From contig JBNKUM010000009.1 in NCBI GenBank assembly GCA_050298595.1, positions 53,882 to 117,881 on the forward strand: a DNA stretch of 64,000 nucleotides, given 5' to 3'. A program made the position numbers and the translations under genes. Each line of letters opens with the position of its first letter. Within the stretch, counting starts at the first letter, position 1. The notes beneath the pieces are model-generated. The model was not told the origin of the DNA, ran no database searches, and saw only the letters and a list, made by a program, of their open reading frames with translations. The DNA comes from Gammaproteobacteria bacterium. GTDB lineage: Bacteria; Pseudomonadota; Gammaproteobacteria; GCA-001735895. Below are positions 9,380 through 29,784 of the stretch, in pieces.

Positions 9380-10696
9380 TCAGTAATGATCCACATCTGT
9401 TAGAGGTAGCTTAACCTTAACTTTCAATCCTCCTAATTCTGATTTCGAGAATGAAATATCACCTTTATAACTGTCCAGGATTGCGCTACATATACTCAGC
9501 CCAAGGCCGTGACCAGCCTGAGTTTCATCCAGTCTGACACCACGTTTTTGTATGCTTTCGATTTTCTGAGATTGAATTCCCTGACCATCGTCGTCAAAAA
9601 TAATAATAAGTTGTTGTTCCAGCATGGACATAGTCAAACCAACCTGATGATTTGAGAATTTACAGGCATTATCCAGCAGGTTTCCAACCAGTTCTAGCAT
9701 ATCATCACGATCAAAGTCGATGTTGCCTATTTCTTCTGGATGCTTGAAATTGATTTTTACATTGGGATAGATTTTATTCATGATTTCAATCATGAAGGGA
9801 ATCTCTTCAGCAATATTGAACACGCCGCTACTGTGTTTTGATCCCGAGATTTTCGCGCGTTTTAATTCGCGCTCAACGATATGTTGTATCTCATCCAGTG
9901 GTTCAATCATCTCTGGTATTCTTTTCTGCTCCTGCTGTAATGATAATAACTGAATAGGGCGTTTTAATTCATGTGCAAGATTACCTATAGCGTGACGAGT
10001 ACGCTCGATACGATTACGCAACTGATCAACTAGCATCTCAATTTCATTCACAAGTGGCATGATTTCCAAAGGTACCTGTAGACCGGTTTTATCCTGCTCG
10101 AGATGTCTAATCGATGAAATGTTTCTTCTTAATAGTTCAAAAATATGGAAGGCTTTATTTAAGGTCTGTTGCTGTAACAAAACCAGGGTCAGAGAAAGTA
10201 ATACCACTAGAGCAATGGCATACAAACTATAACGGAATAATTGTTCCTGTAGTGGTTGAATATCTTCAGCTATCCAGATCTCCATAGCCTGTTTTTGTTT
10301 AACGACTACCTGATACCATATAAGCCAGGTTTCATTACCCGGTCCATCTACTTTTGAATAGCTACCTTTATCTTTCTGCTGTTCAATGAGTGGAAATTTT
10401 GTATCAAAAAGAGAACGTGACGTTAGTATCTGACGGTTGATTCTGACTTTGTAATAATGCCCTGACCTTACCCGGTTATATACTCGGGACAAATGTGCAG
10501 GGTTTATTTCCCATGTATTATGGTTGTTTCTCTGGATCACGCTAACCAGGCTCTCAGCGTCATGCTGTAATCGAGTTAACACATAGTCCTGTAATATACG
10601 TTCCACAGAAAAGCGCATGATCACCAGCAAACCACACATCACTAGCAGCATATTTATGATGAGATTACGAGTTACTTTTTTTTTTAATGAATACAT
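9380..10696 (-). CDS. Sensor histidine kinase (BqsS/CarS/PhoQ-like)
   Basis: Two TM segments; AHELKRP H-box, GNLLDNACK N-box, DDDGQG, GHGLGL. Confidence 0.92.
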   Translation of the reverse strand: MYSLKKKVTRNLIINMLLVMCGLLVIMRFSVERILQDYVLTRLQHDAESLVSVIQRNNHNTWEINPAHLSRVYNRVRSGHYYKVRINRQILTSRSLFDTKFPLIEQQKDKGSYSKVDGPGNETWLIWYQVVVKQKQAMEIWIAEDIQPLQEQLFRYSLYAIALVVLLSLTLVLLQQQTLNKAFHIFELLRRNISSIRHLEQDKTGLQVPLEIMPLVNEIEMLVDQLRNRIERTRHAIGNLAHELKRPIQLLSLQQEQKRIPEMIEPLDEIQHIVERELKRAKISGSKHSSGVFNIAEEIPFMIEIMNKIYPNVKINFKHPEEIGNIDFDRDDMLELVGNLLDNACKFSNHQVGLTMSMLEQQLIIIFDDDGQGIQSQKIESIQKRGVRLDETQAGHGLGLSICSAILDSYKGDISFSKSELGGLKVKVKLPLTDVDHY

Positions 10697-10707
10697 AGAC
10701 TGATTAT

Positions 10708-11370
10708 TTATTCATTAATTATGCGATAACCTTGACCACGGAAAGTTTTAATCCAGTCTTTTCCTAAAATTGCTCTTAAGCGATTAACGTAGACCTCTAT
10801 TACATTACTATCTTTGAGTTGCTCCTCCTGGTAGACGTGTTCACTCAGCTCCGTTTTTGAAATAATTTTATCAGGATGTAACATGAAGTATCGTAACAGG
10901 CGGAATTCTATCGCAGTGAGCTGTACGGTATCTTTGTCAGGAATCGATACCGTTTGCTGGTCAAGATTAAGTACTACGTTTAAGTGTTGTAGAGTATTAT
11001 CCGACAGGCCAAACTGGCGACGTAAAACCGCTTCAAGGCGAGCAGATAACTCTTCAAAATGAAAGGGTTTGCCAACATAATCATCAGCCCCAGCTTTCAA
11101 TCCATCGACCCGTTCCTGCCAGGAGTCTCTTGCTGTTAGAATTAAAACTGGCGTAGTTAATTTCTTTGAGCGCCAGGATTTCAATACCTCAAGCCCCGGT
11201 TTCTGTGGCAGGCCAAGGTCGAGAATAATGCCATCAAAATTTTCTTCCAGAGCCAGAAATTCTGCATCGACCCCATTATCAGCCCATTCGACGACATAGC
11301 CTGCGCGCTGCAATCTGGGTCGTAAATTTTGAACCAGAGCTTCATCATCTTCGGCTAGAAGTATTTTCAA
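10708..11370 (-). CDS. OmpR/PhoB-family response regulator (BqsR/CarR/PhoP-like)
   Basis: LDLGLP, LTARDSWQERVDGLKAGADDY, SNVIEVYVNRLR, RGQGY; downstream of a PepSY gene. Confidence 0.93.
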   Translation of the reverse strand: MKILLAEDDEALVQNLRPRLQRAGYVVEWADNGVDAEFLALEENFDGIILDLGLPQKPGLEVLKSWRSKKLTTPVLILTARDSWQERVDGLKAGADDYVGKPFHFEELSARLEAVLRRQFGLSDNTLQHLNVVLNLDQQTVSIPDKDTVQLTAIEFRLLRYFMLHPDKIISKTELSEHVYQEEQLKDSNVIEVYVNRLRAILGKDWIKTFRGQGYRIINE

Positions 11371-11666
11371 TCTTTAAACTCCTGTTTCAGTATCTGGCCA
11401 TTACTGGCGTCGATTTTCAGCTCAATAACCCTTCCATCCTTATGTAAAAATTCGAGTTCATATTTAATGAGATGATGTTTTCTTTCTACTTCAAGGTCAA
11501 GTAGTTTTCCATATTGATTTTCCGGGTATTGAGTAAGAATAGTTTGCAACGAGAGTATCTTACCCTGCTCGACGAGATACATGATCTCGTCACGATCAAT
11601 CTCATCCGCTTTGAGCGGGGTACTAATCCCAGCGACCAACGCCAGGAATAGATACGTTATCTTCAT
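11367..11666 (-). CDS. Secreted PepSY-domain protein
   Basis: GAGG RBS then MKITYLFLALVAGISTPLKADE signal peptide; GKLLDLEVE...YELEFL..DGRVIELKIDASNG PepSY pattern. Confidence 0.85.
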   Translation of the reverse strand: MKITYLFLALVAGISTPLKADEIDRDEIMYLVEQGKILSLQTILTQYPENQYGKLLDLEVERKHHLIKYELEFLHKDGRVIELKIDASNGQILKQEFKD

Positions 11667-12225
11667 CAAAATTACCTCGTTCTGCCCCTCTATGACAGGC
11701 ATTACATTGACTCAGTGAGCCTACTTTATCATTTCCCCTGATATATCTTGAGGGGATTTCGTCATGTTTGCGTATGAAAAAAGGCAGTTCAGTGATTCGC
11801 GTAGGGATTTTATTACCTGAATTTCTAAGTAATCTACGATAATTCATCGATGAGCTTACTTCGATTAGATATTGTTGTATGGCCACACGGGTGGTCTCAT
11901 CCAGTTCAGCATTTTCACCAAAATGCTCATCTAGTCCTGACATGATGCTGACCCATGAGGGTACTGGCAATAACTGTGGAGGATAAGCCATGTGACAACT
12001 CCCGCATTCCTCAATATATTGAGGGTAACTATTGCTAGTAATCCGGGTAAAATTCCTGTTTTCACGATAATTTCCCCTTTCCCGGTATTCGTGCTCACGC
12101 TCATGTTCATGTTCACCGTATTCAAAATCACTATCTGCCATAGCTTTACCTACTCCATAGACACTGCTAAGCAGTACGCCACCTAATAACAGATAAGCAA
12201 ATATATTAATTTTGCTTTGTTTCAT
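11623..12225 (-). CDS. Dihaem cytochrome c (DHC)
   Basis: ECGSCHMAYPP, HFGENAEL, CNACH; two CxxCH motifs; N-terminal signal/anchor. Confidence 0.9.
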   Translation of the reverse strand: MKQSKINIFAYLLLGGVLLSSVYGVGKAMADSDFEYGEHEHEREHEYRERGNYRENRNFTRITSNSYPQYIEECGSCHMAYPPQLLPVPSWVSIMSGLDEHFGENAELDETTRVAIQQYLIEVSSSMNYRRLLRNSGNKIPTRITELPFFIRKHDEIPSRYIRGNDKVGSLSQCNACHRGAERGNFDEDNVSIPGVGRWD

Positions 12226-12243
12226 AATCTCTCCTCAGGTTGA

Positions 12244-12636
12244 CTATTGAGTGGCTAACCAGGATAAAATATCTGCTTTTTCCTGAACTGTGCAGGTGCG
12301 ATTGAATGTCCACTTACAGTTACGTAAAAACCATTTCTCGATTTTTTTACTCTTCTGAAATCGAGCTGGATTTACGCTCATTGCCATAGGTTTAATCACC
12401 TTGCCAGTTTTTTGATGTTTACCGTTCATCGTCAGGTCTGTTCCATGGCAACTTGTACAGCTCCTGTCGCCTACTTTGGAATTAAATAACTGTCGACCCT
12501 TTTCGATATCGATCTGAGTTACACCTTGCTGCTTATATCCATCGATATGTGCCTGAGGATTTGCTCCAGCCTGAACATTGCTCGTTAGAATCACAAGGCT
12601 GCCTAATACAATAAGTTTACGTAGTTGATGTTTCAT
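12244..12636 (-). CDS. SHP-like monohaem cytochrome c (DUF1924, sphaeroides haem protein)
   Basis: SCTSCH, GKHQKTGKVIKPMA.SVNP.RF, KWFLRNCKW...R.CT; signal peptide. Confidence 0.88.
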   Translation of the reverse strand: MKHQLRKLIVLGSLVILTSNVQAGANPQAHIDGYKQQGVTQIDIEKGRQLFNSKVGDRSCTSCHGTDLTMNGKHQKTGKVIKPMAMSVNPARFQKSKKIEKWFLRNCKWTFNRTCTVQEKADILSWLATQ

Positions 12637-12641
12637 ATGAT

Positions 12642-13253
12642 TTATTCTCCAGATTGTTGATCGTTTACATCCTGCCATTGGGCACGATATTTTTTTCTGC
12701 CGGTTACCATCGCCCTGGCCAGGTTTTCTCCTTCCATGAAGCTACTGAATACAACACCAGCCAGGTGGGTAATCACCAGAAGTAAAGTGAAATTAGCAAA
12801 AAACTCATGAACTTCACCCATCCACTCGCCATTCCAGCCAGCTAAAAATGTATTAGCCAGAGGTCCGCTGCCTTCGCTAGCAATAGTGACCATTCCGGTG
12901 AAGGCGGTCATGCTAATGCTGAGTAATAATGCAATAATCATCACTGCTGCGACAGGGTTGTGTCCCAGATAATGGGGTGCATTAAAGCTCAGCATGCTCT
13001 TTAAATGAGAGATTACGGTGCTGGGTGATTTTACAAAGGTGAGAAACCTGGCGTAGCGTGTCCCCACCAGACCCCAGAACAGACGAAAGCCTACAAGCAT
13101 CGAGACTGCATAGCCTGCCTGGACATGTACGCTTAACCAGTCATCTTCGGTTATAAATGCGAGTAAAAAGAAAAAAACAAGGCTCCAGTGGAACACTCGA
13201 ACCAGTGGATCCCAGACCTTTACGCCGTGGGAAGTTTCGTTTTGAGCGGTCAT
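12642..13253 (-). CDS. Cytochrome b/b6 domain membrane protein
   Basis: VWDPLVRVFHW, HVQAGY, GHNP, HEFFAN, HLAGV haem-His pattern. Confidence 0.9.
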   Translation of the reverse strand: MTAQNETSHGVKVWDPLVRVFHWSLVFFFLLAFITEDDWLSVHVQAGYAVSMLVGFRLFWGLVGTRYARFLTFVKSPSTVISHLKSMLSFNAPHYLGHNPVAAVMIIALLLSISMTAFTGMVTIASEGSGPLANTFLAGWNGEWMGEVHEFFANFTLLLVITHLAGVVFSSFMEGENLARAMVTGRKKYRAQWQDVNDQQSGE

Positions 13254-13281: not shown

Positions 13282-13314
13282 AGTTTAGGGCCATAGTATT
13301 AATTGAAACTTAAA
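13282..13314 (-). promoter_or_regulatory. BqsR/PmrA-type box plus -10 for the cytb-SHP-DHC-PepSY-TCS operon
   Basis: Minus strand reads TTTAAG-tttca-ATTAAT-actatggccc-TAAACT, ending 29 nt upstream of the cytb ATG. Confidence 0.7.
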
Positions 13315-13518: not shown

Positions 13519-13551
13519 TTTAAGTTTGTATTAAGGTGAGCAGGATATATT
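13519..13551 (+). promoter_or_regulatory. BqsR/PmrA-type box plus -10 (divergent promoter)
   Basis: TTTAAG-tttgt-ATTAAG-gtgagcagga-TATATT; further half-sites upstream (TTTAAG 13498, ATTCAG 13507). Confidence 0.7.
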
Positions 13552-13554
13552 GTG

Positions 13555-13650
13555 ATGCCTCACTAATTGATTGATTTCTCGGGCATTGAAGTTATTCGCC
13601 CTAACTTCTCTCGATAAATGGCAGATAAATCTGTTTAGCTTCCATTTTTA
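13555..13650 (+). ncRNA. Candidate sRNA, copy 1 (or structured leader)
   Basis: Follows the boxed promoter; hairpins ATGCCT/GGGCAT and GAAGTTA/TAACTTC; imperfect terminator ATGG...CCAT+TTTT; collinear similarity to 24717-24821. Confidence 0.5.
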
Positions 13651-13764
13651 TTATCAAAGATCATGTTACAATACGACGACCCCCTGATGGTTTTCCCTGG
13701 ATAGTTATGATATGTATTCAGGGGATAAGGAATGTTTTTAGACTTAGATTATTAAGGTTAAAAT

Positions 13765-14208
13765 ATGGATCATCATATAGTTTCATTTCTTCAGGAGTGT
13801 GTCGTCGGTGTGCTTTCTACCTATAACCATGGAGAAATCCATTCAGTGCCCGTCTATTATTATCATGATGAAACTGAAAATGCGTTTTATTTCATTACCA
13901 AGTCTAAATCAAGCAAAGTAACCAATATCCAAAAGAGTAAAAAGGCATCATTTTCGATCTATTCTGAAGCCTTACCCAGAGTTTTCAATGCAAAATGTTC
14001 TGCAGAAATCTTCGATGTTAATAATAATTCACAGAGCATAGAAATTATCAGGAAACTGGCTGAGGTTCATTCGACGCGTGAATATTACCCATCACCAATC
14101 TCAACAATTAAGGATGGTGATTTAAAGCTGGTGAAACTTACTGTTCTTGATTATCAGTATAAGTCTTATACCGCTGCTATTGATGAGAAGATGCAAAAAA
14201 GGGCTTAA
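13765..14208 (+). CDS. Pyridoxamine 5'-phosphate oxidase-like (split-barrel flavin/haem-binding) protein
   Basis: GVLST...IHSVPVYY...FYFITKSKSSKVTNI pattern. Confidence 0.7.
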   Translation: MDHHIVSFLQECVVGVLSTYNHGEIHSVPVYYYHDETENAFYFITKSKSSKVTNIQKSKKASFSIYSEALPRVFNAKCSAEIFDVNNNSQSIEIIRKLAEVHSTREYYPSPISTIKDGDLKLVKLTVLDYQYKSYTAAIDEKMQKRA

Positions 14209-14267
14209 ATCTCATGATCACCTTATACCTTAATTAATGTTTTAATTTTGTCTTCTTTAGAAGAACT

Positions 14268-14762
14268 CTAAAGATATTCGATTTTACAAATTAGATAGAG
14301 GGCGCTGCCTCCCGGCACTTCAATACGTACTTCTTCTCCTAATTCACGTTTTAACAACCCTCGAGCCAGTGGTGAATCAACGCTAATATAGTAATCCTTA
14401 TGATCAAATTCGTCTGGGCCAACTATTCGGTAGCGTTTAACCTCACCCTGTTCATCCTCAAGGTGTACTGTTGCTCCGAAGTAAATCTGATCTGGATTAC
14501 TGGGTGTAGTATTGACGACTTTCAGCGCAGGTAATCGTTTTTGTAAGTATCGTATTCGACGGTCAATTTCTCGTAATTCTTTTTTGCGGTAAATATATTC
14601 AGCATTTTCTGAACGGTCTCCTTCTGCGGCGGCAGCTGATAAGGCGCTAACCACCTCTCGCCTGTGTGGCCATATCGCCTTTTCTTCCTGCTGTAGAGAG
14701 CGCATACCCTCGGCCGTGATATAGGGTGATTTGGGTGCTGCGGGGGGGCGATATCTGCTCAT
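14268..14762 (-). CDS. greB: Transcription elongation factor GreB
   Basis: YITAEG, AAAEGDRSENAEYIYRKKELREIDRRIRYL, ISVDSPLAR; start ATG 14762. Confidence 0.95.
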   Translation of the reverse strand: MSRYRPPAAPKSPYITAEGMRSLQQEEKAIWPHRREVVSALSAAAAEGDRSENAEYIYRKKELREIDRRIRYLQKRLPALKVVNTTPSNPDQIYFGATVHLEDEQGEVKRYRIVGPDEFDHKDYYISVDSPLARGLLKRELGEEVRIEVPGGSALYLICKIEYL

Positions 14763-14862
14763 ATAAAAATGGCTATAAAATACCCATTCTATCAGACAGA
14801 CGGGCTGTCTGAATGTAGGAAAATTTTGAATAAGGTTGATATTTAAAACGATATATTCAAAA

Positions 14863-14912
14863 AACTGTGCTGTATTCAATAATTATTAACTGTAACTGTT
14901 ATTAATACAGAT
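14863..14912. promoter_or_regulatory. Putative operator (AACTGT repeats and CTGTATT/AATACAG inverted repeat) upstream of the DUF1127 gene
   Basis: AACTGT at 14863, 14888 and 14894; CTGTATT at 14870 and AATACAG at 14904. Confidence 0.45.
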
Positions 14913-14970
14913 GTGCGTTTATTCTAGCTATTATCCTATGAAGCGTAAATCGTTATAACTGGAGGAAGCT

Positions 14971-15174
14971 ATGTCGATGTCAACAATTACTTTTCAGATC
15001 AAGCAGAAGTCCGTTCTCGCCAGGCTGAACTCTTTTTCTCTGCAATTACAGTTAATGATGAGGAAACACGAACAGCGTAAGCAACTGGCTCAACTTAGTA
15101 TTGATCAATTGATCGACATGGGCATAGATCCTGCCGATGCTCAGACAGAAATAAGTAAACCTTTCTGGAAATAA
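14971..15174 (+). CDS. DUF1127 (YjiS-like) small protein
   Basis: RKQLAQLS.DQL.DMGI...A..E.SKPFWK; strong GGAGG RBS. Confidence 0.88.
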   Translation: MSMSTITFQIKQKSVLARLNSFSLQLQLMMRKHEQRKQLAQLSIDQLIDMGIDPADAQTEISKPFWK

Positions 15175-15211
15175 CGCCAGAACCTCAGTACATTAGCGCT
15201 TTTTTGCGCTA

Positions 15212-16189
15212 ATGAATGCTATGCCTGAAGTAAATCGACGATTCTGTATTGCTCCGATGATGGATTGTACCGATCGTCATGACCGGTATTTTCTACGACT
15301 ATTTTCACCGCATATGCTTTTGTATAGCGAAATGGTAACAGCTCAAGCCATTATTCATGGTGATCGCGATTATCTATTAGGCTTTGATCAGGCTGAGCAT
15401 CCACTAGCGATACAGTTGGGGGGATCTAACCCAACGCAATTAGCAGAGGCTGCCAGGATATGTGAAGGCTATGGCTACGACGAAATTAACCTGAATGTCG
15501 GTTGCCCCAGTGATCGTGTGAAATCCGGATTTTTCGGAGCCTGTCTGATGGCGGAACCGGAGCTTGTAGCAGACTGTGTTTCTGCAATGAAAGCTGTAGT
15601 CAAAGTACCGGTTACGGTTAAACATCGAACAGGTATAGATGACCAGGATTCCTGGCAAGAGTTGATTCGTTTCATGCGCTGCCAGATCGATGCAGGTAGT
15701 GATGCGATGATTGTTCATGCGCGTAAAGCCTGGCTGCAAGGTTTAAGTCCGAAGCAGAATCGGGATATTCCTCCTTTGCAATACGAATGGGTCTACCGAT
15801 TAAAACAGGAATTTCCTGATATGCAGATTATCCTCAATGGCGGCATCAGCACGCTGGAAGCATGCGAACAACATTTGCAAAAAGTTGATGGCGTGATGCT
15901 GGGTCGTGAACCCTATGCTAATCCTTATATGCTGGCTGAACTGGACGCTAGATTGTTTAATGATGATCATCCAGTGCCTGACCGATTTGAGATATTACAG
16001 CGATTCTATCCCTATCTTGAACAGAACATGTCACAGGGAATGCCTATCTCCAAAGTGGTTCGGCATATTATCGGGCTGTTCCATGCTCAGCCCAATGGTA
16101 AACAGTGGAGACGCTATCTCAGCAATCATGCATTTAAAAGAGATGCTGGTATTGAGGTGATCCGTCAGGCTGAGAATTTGTTGAGATAA
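15212..16189 (+). CDS. dusA: tRNA dihydrouridine(20/20a) synthase DusA
   Basis: APMMDCTDRH, NLNVGCPSDRV, HARKAWLQGLSPKQNR. Confidence 0.95.
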   Translation: MNAMPEVNRRFCIAPMMDCTDRHDRYFLRLFSPHMLLYSEMVTAQAIIHGDRDYLLGFDQAEHPLAIQLGGSNPTQLAEAARICEGYGYDEINLNVGCPSDRVKSGFFGACLMAEPELVADCVSAMKAVVKVPVTVKHRTGIDDQDSWQELIRFMRCQIDAGSDAMIVHARKAWLQGLSPKQNRDIPPLQYEWVYRLKQEFPDMQIILNGGISTLEACEQHLQKVDGVMLGREPYANPYMLAELDARLFNDDHPVPDRFEILQRFYPYLEQNMSQGMPISKVVRHIIGLFHAQPNGKQWRRYLSNHAFKRDAGIEVIRQAENLLR

Positions 16190-16192
16190 ATA

Positions 16193-17731
16193 TTATTTCT
16201 TTTTAATAAAGACTCTATCTTTATCCAGAATATCGGTTTCTATAGAAAACAGGCTTAGTACGGTATCGTATACATCTTGTTGACCATATTCCTCACGTTC
16301 CACAACTGAGATTGGTACAGAAGATTTTACAATCAATGGAATCTCGGCTTGTTCTGGAGGCAGCGATATACCTGGAGGCATGCCATGAAAAATACGACCA
16401 TCTTCCAGTAATGATTCGCCATGATCCGATAAATAAATAAATACATAGGGAACAGATGAGTTATCAAGAGTCTCAATCACTTTACCCAATACGTGATCCA
16501 CATACAGAATAGTGTTGTCGTAAGAGTTATAAAGTTCGTCTTTGGTGCAGTAATTTACAACATCTGCTTCCAGGCACTGGGGGTTAAAAAGCTGAAACTC
16601 CGGGGGGTATCTATCCCGATACTTTGGTCCATGACTGCCACCACCTGCATGTAAAACTATAAATCTATATCCAGACTGGTAGGTTTGCAGATTTTTAGCC
16701 AGTAGCGGAATTAAGTCTTCATCGTAGCATTCCCCATCATGCCCACAATTGTTAACCTTTATCTCGCCAACAGATTTGCAATTATCATACAGGGTGTAGT
16801 TAACATAACATGAAGTATCTATCCCCAATTTTGAAGTAATTGCTGGCAGTTTAACTTCTTTTTTTTCTAAAATTTCTGGTAAGGCAAATAAGGTTGAACC
16901 AATACGAGCTATGCCAGTGAGAAGGTGAAGGTCACTGTATCTGGACAGCACTGGATTGGTATTGTGCTTATCATAACCATAAAGACTAAAGCTTTTTTTC
17001 CTGGATGCCTCACCAACTAGAAGCACCACCACTAAATCATCCTGCGAGGTAACCTGTCCAGTAATCACCACAGGATTTTTATTTTTCTTGAAATAGGGTT
17101 TCACCGCGTTCTGAATGACACTGGCTATGCTGATAATATAATTAACGGGTACCAGTGAATGTACTATGTATTTATTAGATAGATTGGCTGCACGATGAAT
17201 GCTGTTATATTTTAGATATACCATCCCTATAGCGATGGATATCGCTAGTACGAATATTGTTAATGTTGTTGCTATATGCCTTAACGGTCTATGGAAAGTA
17301 ATCCTGATTTTAGAGAGTACGATGATGGGCAATATGACAAGGAATATCAGATACGGGATCATCTGTACGGATAATAACCCGCTCGCTTCAACAGGATCTG
17401 TATTAATGGTATTTAATACCATAGTCCCATCAATGGCCACGTTATATTTAGCGATAAAATATGACGCTGTTGCGCTAACAATAATGAAAAATATTGCAAC
17501 AGGTTTAGTTGTCCAGCGATGAGCAAAAAGTACAAAGAACGCTATGAAAAAGCATAGGCCAAAGGTTAAAAATGCTAACAGGCTGCTATAGTCAATCTCA
17601 TTTCCAAGATGAAACCATTTGTCAATTTTGTCTATATTTATCGAATTCCAGATTACATATAGTAATGTGGTAAACAACAGAGAAAACGATGTATAGGAAA
17701 GGTTAAGTTTTTTACTTTGAGTGCGGGCCAT
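16193..17731 (-). CDS. Phosphoethanolamine transferase (EptA/MCR-like, sulfatase fold)
   Basis: Five TM segments, then VGEASR, GSHGP.Y..RYP, YDNTILYVD, SDHGESL, HG motifs. Confidence 0.87.
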   Translation of the reverse strand: MARTQSKKLNLSYTSFSLLFTTLLYVIWNSINIDKIDKWFHLGNEIDYSSLLAFLTFGLCFFIAFFVLFAHRWTTKPVAIFFIIVSATASYFIAKYNVAIDGTMVLNTINTDPVEASGLLSVQMIPYLIFLVILPIIVLSKIRITFHRPLRHIATTLTIFVLAISIAIGMVYLKYNSIHRAANLSNKYIVHSLVPVNYIISIASVIQNAVKPYFKKNKNPVVITGQVTSQDDLVVVLLVGEASRKKSFSLYGYDKHNTNPVLSRYSDLHLLTGIARIGSTLFALPEILEKKEVKLPAITSKLGIDTSCYVNYTLYDNCKSVGEIKVNNCGHDGECYDEDLIPLLAKNLQTYQSGYRFIVLHAGGGSHGPKYRDRYPPEFQLFNPQCLEADVVNYCTKDELYNSYDNTILYVDHVLGKVIETLDNSSVPYVFIYLSDHGESLLEDGRIFHGMPPGISLPPEQAEIPLIVKSSVPISVVEREEYGQQDVYDTVLSLFSIETDILDKDRVFIKKK

Positions 17732-17911
17732 GAATTAACGAGATTGATTTTTGGGAAATAAAACAGTAAGTGCGATTATTTTTACAGAGCCTGAGAGAAT
17801 GTCCAGGGATTAATGCCTATGATTGAGAGATACGGGGCCTTTTAGTTCAGGAGCCTGGGCAATAATAACGAATACCAGCATTTAGAGCTCCAAAATACTC
17901 TAAAACATGAA

Positions 17912-17955
17912 ATTATATACCATAGTTATTAAGAATAATCCCTGGAAAATCTAAG
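17912..17955 (-). promoter_or_regulatory. Putative promoter of the EptA-like gene with a partial TTAAK box
   Basis: Minus strand CTTAAT-aactatggta-TATAAT, with a CTTAGA half-site 22 bp upstream. Confidence 0.5.
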
Positions 17956-18055
17956 GTAAATATACGGGTCTTGATAGTTTAATAATATTCGACATAAGAT
18001 TTTCCTTGTTAACAGCAACTTCTGACCACGTATCGACAACCAGGCTGCTCGTCTT

Positions 18056-18775
18056 CTAGCTCAACAGGTCAGCCACACGCATCTGCTGGCGCGTTAAGGG
18101 CCCATAGGGCTCATCACGGGTTTTATCATGCACATGCAAGCGATAATTCACAAACGAATCCTCATCCTCAAAATGCATAAATGGATTACCTTCAAGCTGT
18201 TCAGCCATGGTTGCAGTCTCTTTTTCTGAATAGTTATGCCCAGGGTGTATGACCATGTCGCCTGCCAGGCGCTGCTTCATGTCTTTAAGTGTGTTAAACA
18301 TCTGTTGTGGATTTCCCCCATGTAGATCGCAGCGTCCACAACCGAACACAAACAGGGTATCGCCAGTGATTATTTCATTCTCTATCTGGTAACAAGCTGA
18401 TCCTGGTGTGTGTCCGGGGGTATGCAGCATACTGATTTCGCTTTCACCCAGCATGATTCGGTCACCGCCATGGTGCAGGCAGGGTTTATCGAGTTGCTGA
18501 CTCCAGAATTCGTATTCGGGTTTGAGCAGGTGGATTTTCGCATGACTATGTTCGAGCATGCCGCTAATACCATTGATGTGGTCGTGATGGCTGTGAGTCA
18601 GCAGAATGTCGGTGATTTTTAGTCCTAATTCCTCAGCTTTGCTGGTGATAGCGGGAACATCCCAGGCTGGATCAACTACAGCGGCCTGATGGGTTGCAGT
18701 ATCCTCTATCAGGTAAATAAAGTTTTCCATTGGGCCTAGTTCAAGAGTGTGTATACGGGTTTTAGGTTGTGTCAT
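18056..18775 (-). CDS. Metallo-beta-lactamase-fold hydrolase (glyoxalase II / persulfide dioxygenase-like)
   Basis: THSHHDH, HTPGHTPGS, TGDTLFVFGCGRCD, PGHNY. Confidence 0.88.
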   Translation of the reverse strand: MTQPKTRIHTLELGPMENFIYLIEDTATHQAAVVDPAWDVPAITSKAEELGLKITDILLTHSHHDHINGISGMLEHSHAKIHLLKPEYEFWSQQLDKPCLHHGGDRIMLGESEISMLHTPGHTPGSACYQIENEIITGDTLFVFGCGRCDLHGGNPQQMFNTLKDMKQRLAGDMVIHPGHNYSEKETATMAEQLEGNPFMHFEDEDSFVNYRLHVHDKTRDEPYGPLTRQQMRVADLLS

Positions 18776-18847
18776 GATCCCCTCGGTACTTTTGCTAAAG
18801 ATCTTGGTATTATACGCATCTTTTTTCGGCACATGGGTGCGGTAACT

Positions 18848-20263
18848 ATGGAAAAATTAGTCGATGTAGCGATTATTGGCGCAGGTACTGCGGGCCTTAA
18901 TGCAATGTCTCAGGTAAAAAAAGCGGGTAAATCATTTATCCTGATCAATGGTGGGTTCTGGGGAACGACCTGCGCACGAGTTGGATGTATGCCCTCCAAG
19001 GCATTCATCCAGGTGGCAGAAGATTACCACCGGCGTGAGATTTTTGACCGTCATGGTATCGCAGGCGACGAGCAGATCAGTCTGGATATTCCCGAAGGCA
19101 TGGAACATGTACGCGATATGCGCGATATCTTTGTTGATCGGGTTCTGGGTTCAAGTACTGATGAATTGCCTGAGGAGATGAAGCTTGAGGGCTATGCACG
19201 GTTTATCGAACCGGATGCGGTTCAGGTTGGTGATACAATTATTCGTGCCAAAAGCTTTATTATCGCTACTGGCACCAGGCCGATAGTTCCTGAGTCATGG
19301 AAACAATATGGTGATCGCATCATCACAACTGACCAGTTTTTTGAGCAGGAAGATTTTCCAGAAACAATGGCTGTCATCGGTTTGGGTGTTATAGGTCTTG
19401 AACTCGGTCAGGCACTGGCACGCAAGGGTATTAAGATAACCGGCATTGAAGGTAGTGAACGTATTGCCGGGCTGTCTGATGATGTCGCACATCAGGTGCT
19501 GCTGGATTTAATGAGTAAAGAAATGGATATCTGGCTGGGCCAACAGGCCAAATTATCCAGCAGTGGCGATAAAATTCTGATCACTGTCGGGGAGAAAAGC
19601 GTAGAAGTTGACAAGGTGCTGGTTGCTATTGGACGTAAGCCTAATCTGGATAATCTGGGGCTGGATAAGCTCGACCTGGCGCTGGATGATGAAGGCATGC
19701 CGGTTTTTGATCCGAACACGATGCAATTGGGTGATTTACCAATTTATCTGGCGGGTGATGCTAATGGCAGCAAACAGATCCTGCACGAGGCGGGTGACGA
19801 AGGAAAGATCGCTGGATATAACGCGGCTCACCATTGCTCGGATGCATTTAAACGCAAAACCCATCTGGGTATTACTTTCTGTGATCCTAATGTGGCCACG
19901 GTTGGGCAATCCTGGTCCGAACTTTCACAAAACGAAGATGTCGTCGTCGGTGAAATGAGCATGGGTCCGGTAGGGCGTGCACTGATTATGGGTAAGAATA
20001 AAGGCATCATGCGCGTTTATGTGGACAAGAATACAGCAGCCATTCTGGGTGGCACGCTAGTTTCAACCAGAGGTGAGAATGTGGCTCATTTGCTGGCATG
20101 GGCCATCCAGCTAGGCTTGACGGTATATGATGTACTCCGGTTACCTTTTTACCATCCAGTTATAGAAGAGGCGCTGCAGGCCTGTTTTTATGATGCGCTG
20201 AAAAAGCTGGAAGTTAAATCTTCAGCCAAAATTTTAGAATTGGGAGAGATAACCAGTGAATGA
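18848..20263 (+). CDS. Dihydrolipoyl dehydrogenase-family pyridine nucleotide-disulfide oxidoreductase
   Basis: GAGTAG, GTTCARVGCMPSK redox disulfide, GLGVIG, YHPVIEE. Confidence 0.9.
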   Translation: MEKLVDVAIIGAGTAGLNAMSQVKKAGKSFILINGGFWGTTCARVGCMPSKAFIQVAEDYHRREIFDRHGIAGDEQISLDIPEGMEHVRDMRDIFVDRVLGSSTDELPEEMKLEGYARFIEPDAVQVGDTIIRAKSFIIATGTRPIVPESWKQYGDRIITTDQFFEQEDFPETMAVIGLGVIGLELGQALARKGIKITGIEGSERIAGLSDDVAHQVLLDLMSKEMDIWLGQQAKLSSSGDKILITVGEKSVEVDKVLVAIGRKPNLDNLGLDKLDLALDDEGMPVFDPNTMQLGDLPIYLAGDANGSKQILHEAGDEGKIAGYNAAHHCSDAFKRKTHLGITFCDPNVATVGQSWSELSQNEDVVVGEMSMGPVGRALIMGKNKGIMRVYVDKNTAAILGGTLVSTRGENVAHLLAWAIQLGLTVYDVLRLPFYHPVIEEALQACFYDALKKLEVKSSAKILELGEITSE

Positions 20264-20552
20264 TAAAAACCACAGCGAATCACAGGACGAAAAAGTGATG
20301 GAGAAACGTATCATGGTCATGATGCGACAGGTATTGTCCGCAGTAGCACGGGACACCGTGCCACCACCGGGTATGAAACATCCCTTGTCTGATACGACTA
20401 TTGAAGGTATTCGAGATTGTCTGGCACTGATCTCGGCCCGTGAACGCGAATTGAATATCGACCTGGATGAAGAAAGCCTGAAGCGACCGCGTTATATTGA
20501 TGACCCTCAGGCCAATAAGGTCGTTTCTCTGGATTCGATCACCAAAAAATAG
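20256..20552 (+). CDS. Hypothetical protein
   Basis: 98-aa ORF overlapping the lpd-like stop; GGAG upstream; PPPGMKHPLSDTTIEGIRDCLALISARE. Confidence 0.7.
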   Translation: MNDKNHSESQDEKVMEKRIMVMMRQVLSAVARDTVPPPGMKHPLSDTTIEGIRDCLALISARERELNIDLDEESLKRPRYIDDPQANKVVSLDSITKK

Positions 20553-20630
20553 CAGTTAAACCTGAAGCCACGGATTCAGGTTAAAATGAACAACCTTGAA
20601 CTTAAATTCAATAATCTTTGAGTATTTATC

Positions 20631-21845
20631 ATGAGCAAACAATCAGTTAAAAAAGTAGTGCTGGCCTATTCAGGCGGTCTTGATACTTCTGTTATCCTAA
20701 AGTGGCTAGAAGATGAATATAATTGCGAAGTCGTCACCTTTACCGCCGATGTAGGGCAGGGCGAAGAGGTTGAGCCTGCACGTGAAAAGGCACGACAATA
20801 CGGTATTAAGGAAATCTACATCGAAGATCTGAAAGAAGAGTTCGTGAGAGATTATGTATTCCCTATGTTCCGTGCCAATACCATCTACGAAGGTGAATAT
20901 CTGCTCGGCACATCGATTGCCCGTCCACTGATTGCCAAACGACTGGTTGAGATAGCTCGTGAAACCGGTGCCGATGCCATCTCCCACGGTGCCACCGGAA
21001 AAGGTAACGATCAGGTGCGTTTTGAACTCGGTGCCTATGCTCTAAACCCTGATATCAAGGTGATTGCCCCCTGGCGTGAATGGGACTTAACCTCACGTGC
21101 GACACTGATGGCCTATGCTGAAAAAGCCGGTATTCAGATAGAACAAAAACGCGGTACTAAATCACCCTACTCAATGGATGCCAACCTGCTGCACATTTCT
21201 TACGAAGGTGACATTCTGGAAGATCCATGGAGTGAAGCAGAAGAAGATATGTGGCGCTGGAGTGTTTCTCCAGAATCTGCTCCCGACCAACCTACTTATA
21301 TCGTACTTACTTTTGAAAAAGGTGATGTTGTCGCCATCAATGGTGAAGCCATGACTCCGGCAACCGTATTGGCTACCCTGAACAAGATTGGCGGTGACAA
21401 TGGTATTGGTCGATCTGATATCGTAGAAAATCGCTATGTTGGTATGAAGTCTCGTGGCTGTTACGAAACCCCTGGAGGCACCATCCTGTTGAAAGCGCAT
21501 CGCGCTATGGAATCGTTAACACTGGATCGTGAAGTAGCTCATCTTAAAGATGAACTTATGCCACGCTATGCCACATTGATTTATAACGGTTACTGGTGGA
21601 GCCCTGAGCGCAAGATGATGCAACAAATGATTGATGCCTCACAGGCGACGGTCAATGGCGATGTAAGGCTGAAACTTTATAAGGGCAATGTGATAGTGGT
21701 AGGTCGTCAGTCTGCCACAGACAGCCTGTTCGATGAATCTATTGCAACCTTTGAAGATGATGCCGGTGCCTATAACCAGAAGGATGCAGAAGGCTTCATC
21801 AAGCTGAACGCATTGCGTTTACGTATTGCAGGCAAGAAGAAGTAA
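20631..21845 (+). CDS. argG: Argininosuccinate synthase
   Basis: [35 protein letters not shown]. Confidence 0.98.
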
Positions 21846-22294
21846 TGAATATGCAGTTAGTCAGAAAGGGATTTCTGCCGCTGCTGCTAGTGTTTTTGTT
21901 AAACGCCTGCGAGAGCGAAAAAATACAGCAAACCGAGTTCAGTATTCAGCAGAATTATTTTCTGCAATCTATAGAGCTGGTGGAGTCTGCTGGCTTAAAA
22001 CTACAGGCGCCTGAGTTGAAAAAGCAGGATGTAGAGCAGGCCATTCAACAGATGGATCAGGGTTTGCGGCAGGCATTTGAAGTCGAACGTAAGTTTCTAC
22101 GCAAACTTGATTTAAGGCTACCCAAATTCTATAACGAGCTGTTTATCCCTGGTGTTGAACAATATCGATTGGGTATGGAAACGGCTAATCGTCAGCAACA
22201 ATTGCAAGGGCTGGAGTTATTAAGTCGCTGGGGGCAATACTGGATTCAGGAAAAGTCGAATATTCAGCAAAAGCTGGTGAGTTTAAATGGCTGA
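21845..22294 (+). CDS. Hypothetical lipoprotein
   Basis: Lipobox LNAC after a hydrophobic stretch; TAATG coupling to argG. Confidence 0.7.
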   Translation: MNMQLVRKGFLPLLLVFLLNACESEKIQQTEFSIQQNYFLQSIELVESAGLKLQAPELKKQDVEQAIQQMDQGLRQAFEVERKFLRKLDLRLPKFYNELFIPGVEQYRLGMETANRQQQLQGLELLSRWGQYWIQEKSNIQQKLVSLNG

Positions 22295-22493
22295 TACACA
22301 CCTGCTAGTGTGCGTAAATAAACGATCAGGCCTGCAACAACAATTCTGTGCTGGTCTTTACTGAAGTGACTGAACTGGATTTAGATTCGATTATCCAGGC
22401 CGTGCAGGATTTTAAACCGAACCTATCTTAGCCTGCTATCTGTAGGCTATACACAGTTAATGGTGAGCTTTGTCGACTGACAACAATAATCAC

Positions 22494-23555
22494 ATGCGAA
22501 AAATTATCCATATAGATATGGATGCATTTTTCGCATCGGTTGAACAACGAGATAACCCAGATCTGAAAGGAAAACCCGTGGCGGTTGGAGGTTCGGCCAA
22601 ACGTGGTGTGGTTGCCGCCGCGAGCTACGAAGCACGAGAGTTTGGCGTTTATTCTGCTATGCCATCGGTCACGGCTTTAAGGAAATGCCCGCAACTGATA
22701 TTTGTCCCCCCCAGATTTGATGTGTATAAATCAGTATCACAACAGATTCATCAGGTTTTTAAAAAACATACTGATCTCATAGAGCCCTTATCTCTGGATG
22801 AAGCCTATCTGGATGTAACGCAGAATAAACAGGGTATTGCATCCGCTACTGAGATTGCTCGGCTGATCAAGAATGAAATCAAACAGCAGACTAGATTAAC
22901 CGCCTCGGCTGGTGTCTCGATGAATAAATTCCTGGCTAAGGTAGCTTCCGATGTTGATAAGCCTGATGGACTGTTTGTGATTCGACCACAACAAGCACAG
23001 GATTTCATCGATCAGTTACCAATAGAACGTTTTTTTGGAGTAGGGAGAGTGACCGCTAAAAAGATGAAAGCGCTGGGTATTTTCAATGGAGAAACTTTAA
23101 AGCAATGGTCACGGGAAGATCTGTTACAGCAATTTGGAAAATCAGGATTATATTTTTATCAGGTCGCGCATGGTCAGGATGAGCGCCCCGTGCAGTCACA
23201 TCGTATTCGTAAGTCTCTGGGTGCAGAGCGTACCTTTGCTGATGATTTGACATCTCTAACAGACATGGATACTCAGTTGCAACTGATCTCTGAAGAAGTC
23301 GCGATCAGGTTATCTCGAGCTGCAAAGCAGGGGCGAACTATTACTTTAAAAGTAAAATTTGCAGACTTTAGTCAAATTACTCGTAGTCAATCATTGAATG
23401 ATTTAGTTACCGATGCCGAGTCTATATTCCAGGTTGCCAGCCATTTGCTACACACTGAATTTGTAGAAGGGTTTCGGATAAGACTGTTGGGGATTACGCT
23501 TTCGAACTTATCTACATCAAACGATAAGACACATCAGTTAAGTCTTGGAATATAA
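22494..23555 (+). CDS. dinB: DNA polymerase IV
   Basis: RKIIHIDMDAFFASVE, SYEAR, SLDEAYLD, KVASD..KPDG. Confidence 0.96.
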   Translation: MRKIIHIDMDAFFASVEQRDNPDLKGKPVAVGGSAKRGVVAAASYEAREFGVYSAMPSVTALRKCPQLIFVPPRFDVYKSVSQQIHQVFKKHTDLIEPLSLDEAYLDVTQNKQGIASATEIARLIKNEIKQQTRLTASAGVSMNKFLAKVASDVDKPDGLFVIRPQQAQDFIDQLPIERFFGVGRVTAKKMKALGIFNGETLKQWSREDLLQQFGKSGLYFYQVAHGQDERPVQSHRIRKSLGAERTFADDLTSLTDMDTQLQLISEEVAIRLSRAAKQGRTITLKVKFADFSQITRSQSLNDLVTDAESIFQVASHLLHTEFVEGFRIRLLGITLSNLSTSNDKTHQLSLGI

Positions 23556-23626
23556 TTCGAAAAACCTGTTAAAAGTAGCTGCTATCTTAAAAACGCGCTC
23601 TAGGGGCAATCATTGGGAATGAAGGG

Positions 23627-24590
23627 ATGAAGTTTTTCCCCACTCCTGGCAATAGGCTATGTCGCATTGATTGCTGCATGATTACCGCACTCGCCTATCT
23701 GTATTTTAATTCAACCCAGCTGGCTCAACATGGGTTTACCTCGCCATTTCAACTCACATAGGTAGCCGGGATTTATTTCTCCAATATGCTGGCGATCCTA
23801 TTTAGTTTTGGACTACTGATCCTCTGGGCTCAGGTTAGAATGGCTCGTCACTGTGCAGAATGCCTGACAATGCAGGTAGAAAGCTCATTGGATGATTTTG
23901 TCACTGCCTCTTTGATCGCAAAATTATTATCTGAGGCTACCTCACAATATCTGGGTCAGGGTAGTCTTGAGATCATGGATAAATCTGTATTTGAGCCTGG
24001 TGAGCCTGATCCACAGCGCAAGCATGATTTACAGGTATTGTTTGATCAGTATGCAGAACCCTGTCGGCAATACTCGGTAATTGTATTATTTCGAAAATTT
24101 GATGATATAGGGCCAAAGCCGTGGCCTTGCCCGATGGACATATTATTTTCACCGATGCGATGGTAAATCTGGCAAACCAGAATGAGGAGTTGATTGCTAT
24201 TTTCGGGCATGAAGTCGGACACCTGGCACATCAACATATGTTAAGACGAGTGATTCAGGATTCGATGTTCACTCTGGTTCTGGTACTGGTTACGGGTGAT
24301 GCATCCTCAGCGCTTGTTAGCGCGATTCCAGCGGTGCTACTTGAGCTTGCCTATTCGTGAGAATTTGAACGGGAAGCCGATGATTTTGCCTATGAATTCC
24401 TGTTACAAAACAATCTATCCACCGTGTATTTTGCTAATATTATGCAGCGCCTGGAATAACTGCGAAGATATCCCAAATCAAAAGATGATATTGAAAGGCA
24501 CAGCAATCAAGAAGAAGGGTATTCCTCCTATCTTTCAACCCATCCGGCAACTGAACAACGGATGCAGGGGGTTTTAGGCCTGAGCAATAG
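23627..24590 (+). pseudogene. M48-family metallopeptidase pseudogene
   Basis: ALPDGHII..D, HEVGH (HExxH), AYS*EFEREAD and YLSTHPATEQR pieces split by frameshifts and in-frame TGA/TAA; boundaries approximate. Confidence 0.85.
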
Positions 24591-24679
24591 TTAGTTAAGA
24601 CATCTTGTAGACTCCCTGAGGGGGATTTTTGATATGTGAAATCCTGAGTTTATGAATCAAATTCAAGTCAGAGGGGGGT

Positions 24680-24712
24680 TTTAAGCTTCAATTAAGGTTA
24701 AAACCCTATAGT
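24680..24712 (+). promoter_or_regulatory. BqsR/PmrA-type box plus -10 driving a candidate sRNA
   Basis: TTTAAG-cttca-ATTAAG-gttaaaaccc-TATAGT; no CDS downstream on this strand. Confidence 0.7.
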
Positions 24713-24716
24713 AGGG

Positions 24717-24821
24717 AATCCTTCCGGTGTTTAGAAGGATTTGAGATTAATAATACTTACTTCTCAACTCAGATGGCGGCTATATTCACCCCCCCCCCGA
24801 CTGTAGCCGCCATTTTTTTTT
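24717..24821 (+). ncRNA. Candidate sRNA, copy 2
   Basis: Promoter, then hairpins AATCCTTC/GAAGGATT and TTGAGA/TCTCAA, then terminator ATGGCGGCTA/TAGCCGCCAT with a C10-containing loop and T tract. Confidence 0.65.
24773..24821 (+). terminator. Rho-independent terminator
   Basis: 10-bp stem ATGGCGGCTA...TAGCCGCCAT followed by a T run. Confidence 0.85.
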
Positions 24822-24840: not shown

Positions 24841-25329
24841 TCATCTGGTAAGTATTCTATATGTTAAGTACATTACATCAAACGGCAGATGTTGAAATGA
24901 TCTTGTCTCGCCTTCAATAAACCCCAGCTTTATGTACCAGTCTTTAAGTTCTGAAAATTTTGCAATGATTCCGATACTGACAAGATAGATTTCCTGATTC
25001 TTTGAGTATTCAATCACGTGGCGTACCAGTTTTTCGCCGATACCTCTACACCTATATTTGGGTAATACCGATAAGCGGTTCAGATAGGATATGGAAGGAT
25101 CAGGGCTTTCAAAAGCAACACAGCCTATAAAAATACCATCTAGCTGGGCAAGAAAATATTTTTCACCACGATCAAAATCTGATCTTGCCCAGTCCTCAGT
25201 GTAAAAGGAGGGGTGTTTTGGGTTATTTTGCCGAGTTAAATCAAATCGTTCTGCTACGTCTTTATTCGACTCACTTATGATATTTGCTAAAACGGCAGAA
25301 TCTTTTTTGGTTGCGTTAATTATTTTCAT
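24841..25329 (-). CDS. GNAT-family N-acetyltransferase
   Basis: RLSVLPKYRCRGIGEKLV acetyl-CoA motif; WYIKLGF. Confidence 0.88.
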   Translation of the reverse strand: MKIINATKKDSAVLANIISESNKDVAERFDLTRQNNPKHPSFYTEDWARSDFDRGEKYFLAQLDGIFIGCVAFESPDPSISYLNRLSVLPKYRCRGIGEKLVRHVIEYSKNQEIYLVSIGIIAKFSELKDWYIKLGFIEGETRSFQHLPFDVMYLTYRILTR

Positions 25330-25692
25330 GACCCCGTATTTAAAAACTGTCATTTGAGAATGTCTACATCAAAGGTGCTAAGAAATCCTGTTTAACCTAT
25401 ATTTCTACTCTTCTATTGCTACTTTCTTGCTGACTGCTTTATGGTTTCGCCATCTGGGGCTTTTAGGGCGATGTGTACTCTGTGTTACCACTTCTTGCCG
25501 GTAGACTTATGCCTGTAAGGTTGCGCCTTTATTGTGCATCAGCCAGCACCGGTGATACAAGATTATTGCTTTCTGCCAATATGGCACCAAAACTATTATC
25601 AATTCCAATAAGTTAATAACTAGTTCTACTTGTATTAGTTCGTCAATAGCTGCAAAAATATCAGCCTAATTTCCAAGCTGGAGTCGTATAAA

Positions 25693-28756: not shown

Positions 28757-29524
28757 TCAGAGTGGGTAGTCAGGATGTAATGTTAACACTTCGAAGCCAT
28801 CTTCGGTGACTAGATTAGTATGTTCCCATTGCGCTGATAGACTGTGATCCTTGGTGACTACGGTCCAGTCATCGGGTAGCAATTTAACATGACGTTTGCC
28901 AAGATTGACCATGGGCTCGATGGTAAAGGTCATGCCTGGTTTCAGAGTTATACCACTACCAGCAGGGCCGTAATGCAGGACCTGAGGCTCTTCATGAAAT
29001 ACCTTACCTATGCCATGCCCACAGTATTCGCGCACAATGCTGCAATGATTTTTTTCGGCATAAGTTTGAATAGCGTGGCCTATATCGCCCAGTTTTATGC
29101 CGGGCTTTATCATTTCTATGCCGATTTTCATGCAATCATAGGCCACCTGAGACAGGCGCTGACCCTGAATTTTCGGCTTGCCAACCAGAAACATACGACT
29201 GGTGTCTCCATGATAGCCATCCTTGATTACGGTAATATCGATATTGACGATATCGCCATCTTTTAGAACCCGATCAGAAGGGATGCCATGACACACCTGA
29301 TGATTGACGGAGGTGCAGATGGATTTGGGGTAGCCCCGGTAGTTAAGTGGAGCAGGTATCACCTGTTGCTCGTTAACCATATAGTCATGACAGAGTCGAT
29401 CCAGTTCGCCAGTAGTGACACCAGGCACTACGTGCGGTTCGATCATTTTCAGTACATCGGCCGCCAATCTTCCTGCTATACGCATTTTGTCGATTTCTAC
29501 TGCCGTTTTCAGCGTAATAGCCAT
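28757..29524 (-). CDS. map: Methionine aminopeptidase type I
   Basis: CTSVN..VCHGIP, DGYHGDTS, GHGIG..FHEEP, SAQWEH. Confidence 0.98.
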   Translation of the reverse strand: MAITLKTAVEIDKMRIAGRLAADVLKMIEPHVVPGVTTGELDRLCHDYMVNEQQVIPAPLNYRGYPKSICTSVNHQVCHGIPSDRVLKDGDIVNIDITVIKDGYHGDTSRMFLVGKPKIQGQRLSQVAYDCMKIGIEMIKPGIKLGDIGHAIQTYAEKNHCSIVREYCGHGIGKVFHEEPQVLHYGPAGSGITLKPGMTFTIEPMVNLGKRHVKLLPDDWTVVTKDHSLSAQWEHTNLVTEDGFEVLTLHPDYPL

Positions 29525-29720: not shown

Positions 29721-29784
29721 AAAGTGTATTGTTGCTGGTCAATGACCTGGCCGTGCACTTTATATGACATCTGGAGATATCATT

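Follow-up and report, generated by a model that had tools for sequence, protein, structure and literature searches.

The enterobacterial siblings OmrA and OmrB are small RNAs (sRNAs) that depend on EnvZ-OmpR and carry their seed at the 5′ end. MgrR, another enterobacterial sRNA, is PhoP-dependent, present in a single copy, and linked to the modification of lipid A. Other sRNAs, namely RsaE/RoxS of Firmicutes and RepG of Helicobacter, have C-rich loops, and RoxS is controlled by the redox-linked system ResDE. The box recognized by the response regulator BqsR of Pseudomonas aeruginosa is TTAAG(N)6TTAAG, which overlaps the polymerase site, according to PMC4358008. Here, we describe two units, copy 1 and copy 2, located 11 kilobases (kb) apart in a 64,000-nucleotide (nt) stretch of DNA, hereafter the window (G000:C9:53882-117881), from a draft genome of an uncultured gammaproteobacterium (5.49 megabases (Mb), 119 contigs, 45% G+C). 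The units are probably two paralogous sRNA genes, with products of about 94 and 105 nt, which are activated by a BqsR/CarR-like regulator and are likely to act in trans by pairing. Their anatomy, paralogy, conservation and covariation, and the distribution of the box, were established by sequence analysis, and we infer their transcription, dependence on the regulator, action in trans, and target. An earlier note on the window had read the units as paralogous trans-acting sRNAs forming the post-transcriptional arm of a BqsRS-like regulon, and this interpretation as a whole appears partly supported.

The units resemble MgrR in their predicted membership in the direct regulon of a regulator of the PhoP/PmrA class. 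However, MgrR is single-copy and unrelated in sequence, and the EptA-like gene near the units has no box upstream. C-rich loops that could pair with G-rich Shine-Dalgarno regions are shared with RsaE/RoxS and RepG, and the control of RoxS by ResDE resembles the putative redox-linked two-component control at this locus; in contrast, the host is a gammaproteobacterium and the units match no Rfam family. Unlike the tandem OmrA and OmrB genes, to which they have no sequence or Rfam relation, the units lie far apart, their putative regulator is BqsR/CarR/PmrA-like rather than OmpR, and their conserved part is an internal hairpin with its loop. They are nevertheless similar to OmrA/OmrB as a paralogous pair of RNAs of about 90–100 nt with intrinsic terminators and putative control by an OmpR-family regulator of a two-component system, and in the expected repression of translation at ribosome-binding sites, which is predicted here from the sequence (see also the abstract of PMC13473878). 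The BqsR (CarR) regulon of P. aeruginosa shares the identical box overlapping the polymerase site and an autoregulated operon (presumed so in the window), but the accessible part of PMC4358008 describes no BqsR-dependent sRNA, and the operon in the window additionally encodes a cytochrome b561, a DUF1924 protein, and a dihaem cytochrome c.

Anatomy, paralogy and distribution of the two units

The features of the two units are the following:

13520–13535, plus strand: response-regulator box of copy 1, TTAAGTTTGTATTAAG, a direct repeat with an 11-nt period; exact TTAAG-N6-TTAAG, kept in orthologues
13546–13551, plus strand: predicted −10 element of copy 1, TATATT, 10 nt past the box
13556–13649, plus strand: predicted sRNA copy 1, about 94 nt (fold, consensus structure, compensatory changes; 5′ end predicted)
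13556–13585, plus strand: hairpin 1 of copy 1 (fold)
13588–13608, plus strand: hairpin 2 of copy 1, loop UUCGCCC (fold)
13616–13647, plus strand: terminator of copy 1, followed by a U5 tail (fold)
24681–24696, plus strand: response-regulator box of copy 2, TTAAGCTTCAATTAAG, exact match, kept in orthologues
24707–24712, plus strand: predicted −10 element of copy 2, TATAGT, 10 nt past the box
24717–24821, plus strand: predicted sRNA copy 2, about 105 nt (fold, −33.6 kcal/mol)
24718–24740, plus strand: hairpin 1 of copy 2 (fold)
24741–24767, plus strand: hairpin 2 of copy 2 (fold)
24771–24815, plus strand: terminator of copy 2 with a C10 loop, followed by a U9 tail (fold)

The hairpins of both units begin about five nt past the −10 element, and the last of the three is the terminator. 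The folds and a motif scan thus agree with the earlier note, which had described three hairpins and the same boxed promoter in both units. The 45-nt segments that start at 13586 and 24741 are identical at 28 positions without gaps, and in both of them ACTTCTC starts 18 nt past TTGA and ATGGC starts at offset 32, so that the identity and landmarks given previously were reproduced by our count. The 3′ ends of the units are TAGCTTCCATTTTT and TAGCCGCCATTTTTTTTT. None of 200,000 random pairs of 45-nt segments from the window reached 28 matches (maximum 27), and the two segments are each other's best non-self match when both strands of the window are searched.

BLAST searches with each copy against the whole genome did not find the other copy at an expectation value (E) of 10 or below, and profiles were therefore needed to detect the relation. 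An nhmmer profile built only from copy 1 of the relatives retrieved copy 2 of the window as the second-best match in the 5.49-Mb genome (E 0.0037). The inclusion of the promoter in the copy 1 profile gave E 2.2e-4, and the reciprocal search with a copy 2 profile including the promoter reached copy 1 at E 7.2e-5. The parts common to both copies are the promoter, the segment from TTGA through hairpin 2 to UC, and the terminator stem GGC(A/G)GCUA, which contains a compensatory A-U to G-C change. The paralogy of the two copies, proposed in the earlier note, is supported in silico.

The comparison set consisted of 14 genomes, all from one uncultured genus of gammaproteobacteria. BLAST identified copy 1 in G001, G004, G010, and G012, and copy 2 in G010 and G012, which gave a first collection of eight sequences. 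Four more members came from a covariance model of these eight: copy 2 in G001 and in G004, and a single copy in each of G011 and G013. The full set therefore comprises 12 members in seven of the 14 genomes. All 12 possess, in silico, their own promoter, with the box and a −10 element at fixed spacing, and a terminator with a tail of U5–U9. A second covariance model, built from all 12, was run on the 65 other family genomes and on a sample of 150 others from the class, and neither set yielded a boxed member. When metagenomes were scanned for the hairpin 2 motif, the one contig retrieved had the same length as G013:C94 (25,328 bases) and added nothing new, and a scan of genome contigs with the cytochrome b561 protein returned three loci, the contigs of G001, G012, and G010, with no new member. 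Unboxed covariance-model matches in G002, G006, G008, and at three sites of the window's own genome appeared to be driven by the terminator alone, as did those in G083, G010:C103, G134, and G211, and all were rejected. The doubtful BLAST match L023 in G011 has no box and was not recovered by the covariance models; it was left out of all alignments. The family is narrowly distributed and restricted to the genus.

The units do not behave as a repetitive extragenic palindrome (REP) or a miniature inverted-repeat transposable element (MITE), since the genome contains two copies, and BLAST and covariance-model searches of its 5.49 Mb gave no further boxed member. The covariance-model search suggested in the earlier note thus recovered boxed homologues in relatives without signs of a repeat element. 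The view that the units belong to no known family also held: neither locus matched Rfam 15 at the family gathering score, which was the criterion of membership, and relaxed searches (E ≤ 10) gave nothing above 23.7 bits, compared with gathering scores of 40–100. The sole Rfam match in the window is an ordinary known element, t44 RNA (RF00127, 64.5 bits), at 29617–29718 on the plus strand, flanked by a map-like open reading frame (ORF) at 28757–29524 (minus strand) and a plus-strand ORF at 29764–30738.

Both copies are syntenic in five genomes. Copy 1 is located between the cytochrome b561 operon and a PNPOx-like gene in all five carriers, and copy 2 lies 10–13.5 kb from copy 1, between dinB with small ORFs and glnD. 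The single copy of G011 occupies a different locus, where it faces a convergent ABC-2 gene. Upstream of copy 2 in the window is an ORF of 126 residues (23786–24166, plus strand), the first 42 residues of which match the C-terminal end of Pfam DUF898. The similarity of its relatives is split in two pieces, and the ORF may be a truncated or rearranged gene.

The copy 1 core ATTGAAGTTATTCGCCCTAACTTCTCT, 27 nt including loop 2, is invariant in five genomes, among which the neighbouring PNPOx-like protein is only 61–90% identical. The core of copy 1 is thus frozen, whereas sister species differ in hairpin 2 of copy 2. The fold of copy 2 in the window has an energy of −33.6 kcal/mol, with a z-score of −6.1 relative to shuffled sequences, and the copy 1 terminators of four relatives form perfect stems of 10–14 base pairs with tails of U6–U7. 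RNAalifold applied to an unfitted MAFFT alignment of eight sequences recovered three helices, with double changes in nine of 25 pairs. In the alignment of all 12 members fitted to the model, 91.3% of cells are paired, compared with 25–52% when the partners are slid. The same alignment has double changes in 16 of 25 pairs, and none of 500 shuffles reached the observed values, although this count comes from an alignment that leans towards the model to which it was fitted. From a sequence-only alignment of all 12 members (A4), RNAalifold recovered only the terminator, and the three-helix counts therefore rest on the MAFFT and model-fitted alignments. In both of these, compensatory changes favour the shared fold on which the earlier note had based its proposal.

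A small-peptide function was rejected because there is no conserved ORF; G001 and G012 lack the six-codon ATG frame of the copy 1 terminator. An antisense function was rejected as well, since both units are clear of other transcripts. In copy 2, the terminator loop (24787–24796, plus strand) contains a run of ten C, compared with five to seven in four orthologues, and could be a slippage-prone tract or an assembly error.

The regulator operon and the box

Copy 1 is divergent from a six-gene operon, which encodes the putative regulator about 2 kb away:

9380–13253, minus strand: six-gene operon (Pfam, NCBIfam, PDB sequence search)
12642–13253, minus strand: cytochrome b561 (Pfam)
12244–12678, minus strand: DUF1924 protein (Pfam)
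11623–12225, minus strand: dihaem cytochrome c (Pfam)
11367–11702, minus strand: PepSY protein (Pfam)
10708–11370, minus strand: OmpR-family response regulator (Pfam, NCBIfam, PDB sequence search)
9380–10696, minus strand: histidine kinase (Pfam)
13298–13313, minus strand: promoter box of the operon, TTAAGTTTCAATTAAT, one mismatch, followed after 10 nt by TAAACT; 60 nt before the start of the cytochrome b561 gene

The best NCBIfam model for the regulator is PmrA, with 198.6 bits, which is below the cut-off of 330. The closest proteins among solved structures are BasR, with 147 bits over the full length, and CarR of P. aeruginosa, with 141 bits for the receiver and 87 bits for the DNA-binding domain. 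A PepSY protein is encoded upstream of the regulator and the kinase. The products of bqsP and bqsQ likewise carry PepSY domains; the word "PepSY" occurs zero times in PMC4358008.

The exact sequence TTAAG-N6-TTAAG occurs only twice in the window, at 13520–13535 and 24681–24696, and at 11 sites on both strands of the 5.49-Mb genome. The boxes of copy 1 and copy 2 are identical to the BqsR box as published in PMC4358008, and their repeats, which overlap the −35 position, end 10 nt before the −10 element. In all eight first-collected sequences, the box starts exactly 32 nt ahead of the end of a TATA(T/G)T hexamer, and the four members found later have the box and −10 element at the same spacing. 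The absence of a −35 element suggests an activator-dependent promoter. The composite pattern TTAA[GT]-N6-TTAA[GT]-N10-TAnnnT has five sites in the 5.49 Mb, all of them intergenic. Four of the five precede the two RNA units, the operon of the regulator itself, and a gene for a di-haem cytochrome c peroxidase (CCP_MauG); the fifth, which is A+T-rich, may be due to chance. The peroxidase gene has an exact box, TTAAGTTTGAATTAAG, 124 nt upstream, at G000:C8:25680 on the plus strand (4681–4696 of locus L058), and is divergent from a paralogous cluster for a dihaem cytochrome c, a cytochrome c′, and a cytochrome b561.

The arrangement of the operon's box in the window is repeated ahead of the orthologous operon in G002, G006, G007, G009, G011, and G013. 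The simplest view is therefore that the box is a site of the regulator itself, and the operon promoter is presumed to be autoregulated. An EptA-like phosphoethanolamine transferase gene (16193–17731, minus strand), which scores below the NCBIfam cut-offs, has no TTAAG-N6-TTAAG upstream within one mismatch. Because it lacks the box, this gene appears to lie outside the regulon, even though the regulator is PmrA-like. The regulon looks periplasmic and redox-related, as it includes cytochromes and a cytochrome c peroxidase.

The motif RExxE senses Fe(II). It was not seen when the translation of the kinase was read, which distinguishes the system from BqsRS. The suggestion in the earlier note of a BqsRS-like cation and redox regulon is accordingly retained in one part: the box is the BqsR box, it precedes the regulator operon, and the regulator resembles BasR/PmrA and CarR. 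Cation sensing by the system, the other part of the suggestion, is unsupported.

Candidate pairing surfaces and targets

The earlier note had proposed ACUUCUC as a seed. In the folds, this segment is paired as the 3′ arm of hairpin 2 instead of being free. Copy 1 and the copies of G011 and G013 retain it, and the copy 2 orthologues of G010 and G001 do not. The seed assignment is corrected accordingly. Every member contains at least one C-rich loop. These loops are UCGCCC or UCACCC in loop 2, C4–C6 in loop 1 of the G011 and G013 copies, and C6–C10 in the terminator loop of copy 2. The C-rich loops appear to be better seed candidates than ACUUCUC. The genome contains an hfq gene for an RNA chaperone (G000:C68:29668-29853; 100 bits, cut-off 27).

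A duplex scan covered 4,424 crudely defined translation start regions of one genome. The top duplex of copy 1, at −31.6 kcal/mol, is with a gene for a membrane-anchored cytochrome c (CVACH; Cytochrome_CBB3 domain) at G000:C75:37747. The predicted pairing partner of the invariant copy 1 core is AUCGGGAGAGUUAGGGUGAC, a site that includes both the Shine-Dalgarno sequence of this gene and its GUG start. All five genomes with copy 1 have this site unchanged, despite variable flanking leader and codons, and the orthologue in the seven other genomes examined lacks it; the core duplex recurs with each species' own RNA. The membrane cytochrome c is a lead and the best candidate target of copy 1. The motif CGGGGG(G), which could fit the loop of copy 2, is in the Shine-Dalgarno position of coxB, which is fused to a cytochrome c domain, of a SCO1/SenC gene, and of a FixG-like gene:

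G000:C107:38065, G000:C91:6484, and window 45406–46689 (minus strand): genes with CGGGGG(G) in the Shine-Dalgarno position

Local duplex predictions for the operon genes and the PNPOx-like, EptA-like, and GNAT genes gave no target. A low-energy duplex between the loop of copy 2 and a GreA/B-like gene was disregarded, as the TTG start at which it is located is doubtful, the ATG further downstream being the likely one. The start of this gene (window 14730–14760, minus strand) is probably the ATG near 14760 rather than the TTG at 14879, and its first codons include a run of seven C.

Alternative readings and meaning of the two predicted RNAs

Based on the anatomy of the units, the distribution of the box, and the candidate duplexes, a mode of action can be outlined. 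Each sRNA would be transcribed from a promoter without a −35 element, in place of which TTAAG-N6-TTAAG would be bound by the BqsR/CarR/PmrA-like response regulator, whose gene is 2 kb away. Upon activation of the kinase, the regulator would turn on its own cytochrome/PepSY operon, the cytochrome c peroxidase gene, and both RNAs, each of which would end at its intrinsic terminator. The RNAs would most likely pair in trans through their C-rich loops and the 3′ arm of hairpin 2, which resembles an anti-Shine-Dalgarno sequence. Pairing at ribosome-binding sites would lower translation, and the membrane-anchored c-type cytochrome may be the target of copy 1.

Several observations weigh against the reading of the units as trans-acting sRNAs. 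The fold of copy 1 in the window is not better than those of shuffled sequences (z −0.96), because its weakened terminator stem has two mismatches that the copies of the relatives lack. A copy 2 profile restricted to the RNA part reaches copy 1 at just E 3.6, and the larger of the two covariation counts has the lean described above. The target scan of copy 1 is not significant, with four shuffled seeds reaching −27.3 to −32.2 kcal/mol, and both copy 2 seeds performed no better than shuffles in the duplex scan. The five genomes that share AUCGGGAGAGUUAGGGUGAC are mutual closest relatives and form one clade, and the co-occurrence of the site with copy 1 is therefore confounded by descent. An extended site for the G011 and G013 variant was not found in those genomes, where a pattern search yielded only RNA genes. 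In coxB, the G-rich Shine-Dalgarno sequence matches the C-loop of copy 2, but it is conserved across the genus, three genomes without the RNA included, and the SCO1 motif is variable, so nothing follows for either gene as a target of copy 2. Finally, copy 1 lies 110–115 nt upstream of the co-directional PNPOx-like gene in all five genomes, where a read-through or leader role is possible.

This position is the starting point of an unlikely alternative, in which copy 1 serves the PNPOx-like gene (13765–14208, plus strand, Pfam; 115 nt downstream of copy 1 in the window) as a regulator-dependent 5′ leader or attenuator, its terminator setting the read-through, and copy 2 is a functionless duplicated remnant. 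The two terminator mismatches of the window's copy 1 would fit such a role, as would a further conserved hairpin in the spacer. However, the copy 1 terminators of the four relatives are perfect, and copy 2, which would be a mere remnant, is kept in five genomes with a perfect terminator. Copy 2 faces a convergent GNAT gene (24841–25353, minus strand) and therefore cannot be a leader; the copy of G011 also faces a convergent gene. Moreover, a −10-like TACAAT, TACTAT, or TATAAT is found about 20 nt past the copy 1 terminator in four of the five genomes. The PNPOx-like gene may therefore have its own promoter, although the evidence is weak. The spacer hairpin is located at 13681–13727 (plus strand; CCCCTGA...TCAGGGG), has a stem sequence that varies in relatives, and precedes GGAATGTTTTT; the hairpin could be a leader element of the PNPOx-like gene in its own right.

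It is quite unlikely that the RNAs are made but act through protein binding, as sponges, or only in cis, rather than as pairing repressors of distant mRNAs. The lack of a statistically significant target and the fast divergence of hairpin 2 of copy 2 between species would be expected in that case. However, the RNAs contain no repeated protein-binding motifs such as GGA, and the units overlap no transcript; the operon box is oriented the opposite way and is separated from the predicted copy 1 start by about 240 nt. Some stem bases in the frozen 27-nt core of copy 1 never covary, consistent with a sequence constraint such as that on a pairing surface. It is very unlikely that the units are regulator-bound promoters and terminators with functionless short products, either decoys or remnants of rearranged operon promoters. 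The limitation of the family to seven of 14 genomes of one genus would fit this reading, as would the fact that its closest resemblance is to the promoter box of the operon itself. Against it, compensatory changes preserve each of the three helices, the core is invariant next to divergent flanking proteins, and both copies are syntenic in five species.

If the two units are indeed trans-acting sRNAs, their role may extend further. We speculate, with considerable doubt about this scenario when it is taken jointly, that the genus-specific siblings make up one half of what a BqsR/CarR-like periplasmic redox sensor controls directly and form its post-transcriptional arm. While the regulator turned on the b561/dihaem cytochrome module and a cytochrome c peroxidase, copy 1 would shut off the translation of the membrane cytochrome c by pairing across the Shine-Dalgarno sequence and GUG start, and the poly-C terminator loop of copy 2 would act on G-rich ribosome-binding sites of respiratory genes. 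Periplasmic electrons would thereby be rerouted from the oxidase to the peroxidase branch.

Systems of this kind are well known, and only seven species, represented by metagenome-assembled genomes, carry the family, so the general impact of the finding would be modest. The two units would provide a clean case of recent sRNA duplication and divergence, in which the core of one copy is frozen and hairpin 2 of the other is changing. In the accessible parts of the literature on BqsR, CarSR, PmrA, and sibling sRNAs (PMC4358008, PMC9178039), no sRNA dependent on this class of regulators was found; the RNA sequencing tables of PMC4358008 that list sRNAs are outside this coverage. If real, the pair would extend the BqsR/CarR/PmrA class of regulators by an sRNA arm, within a compact two-component regulon that can be fully enumerated and in which two of the four promoters drive sRNAs. 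Although the lineage is uncultured, the box, the RNA fold, and a concrete candidate target would all be defined from sequence alone.

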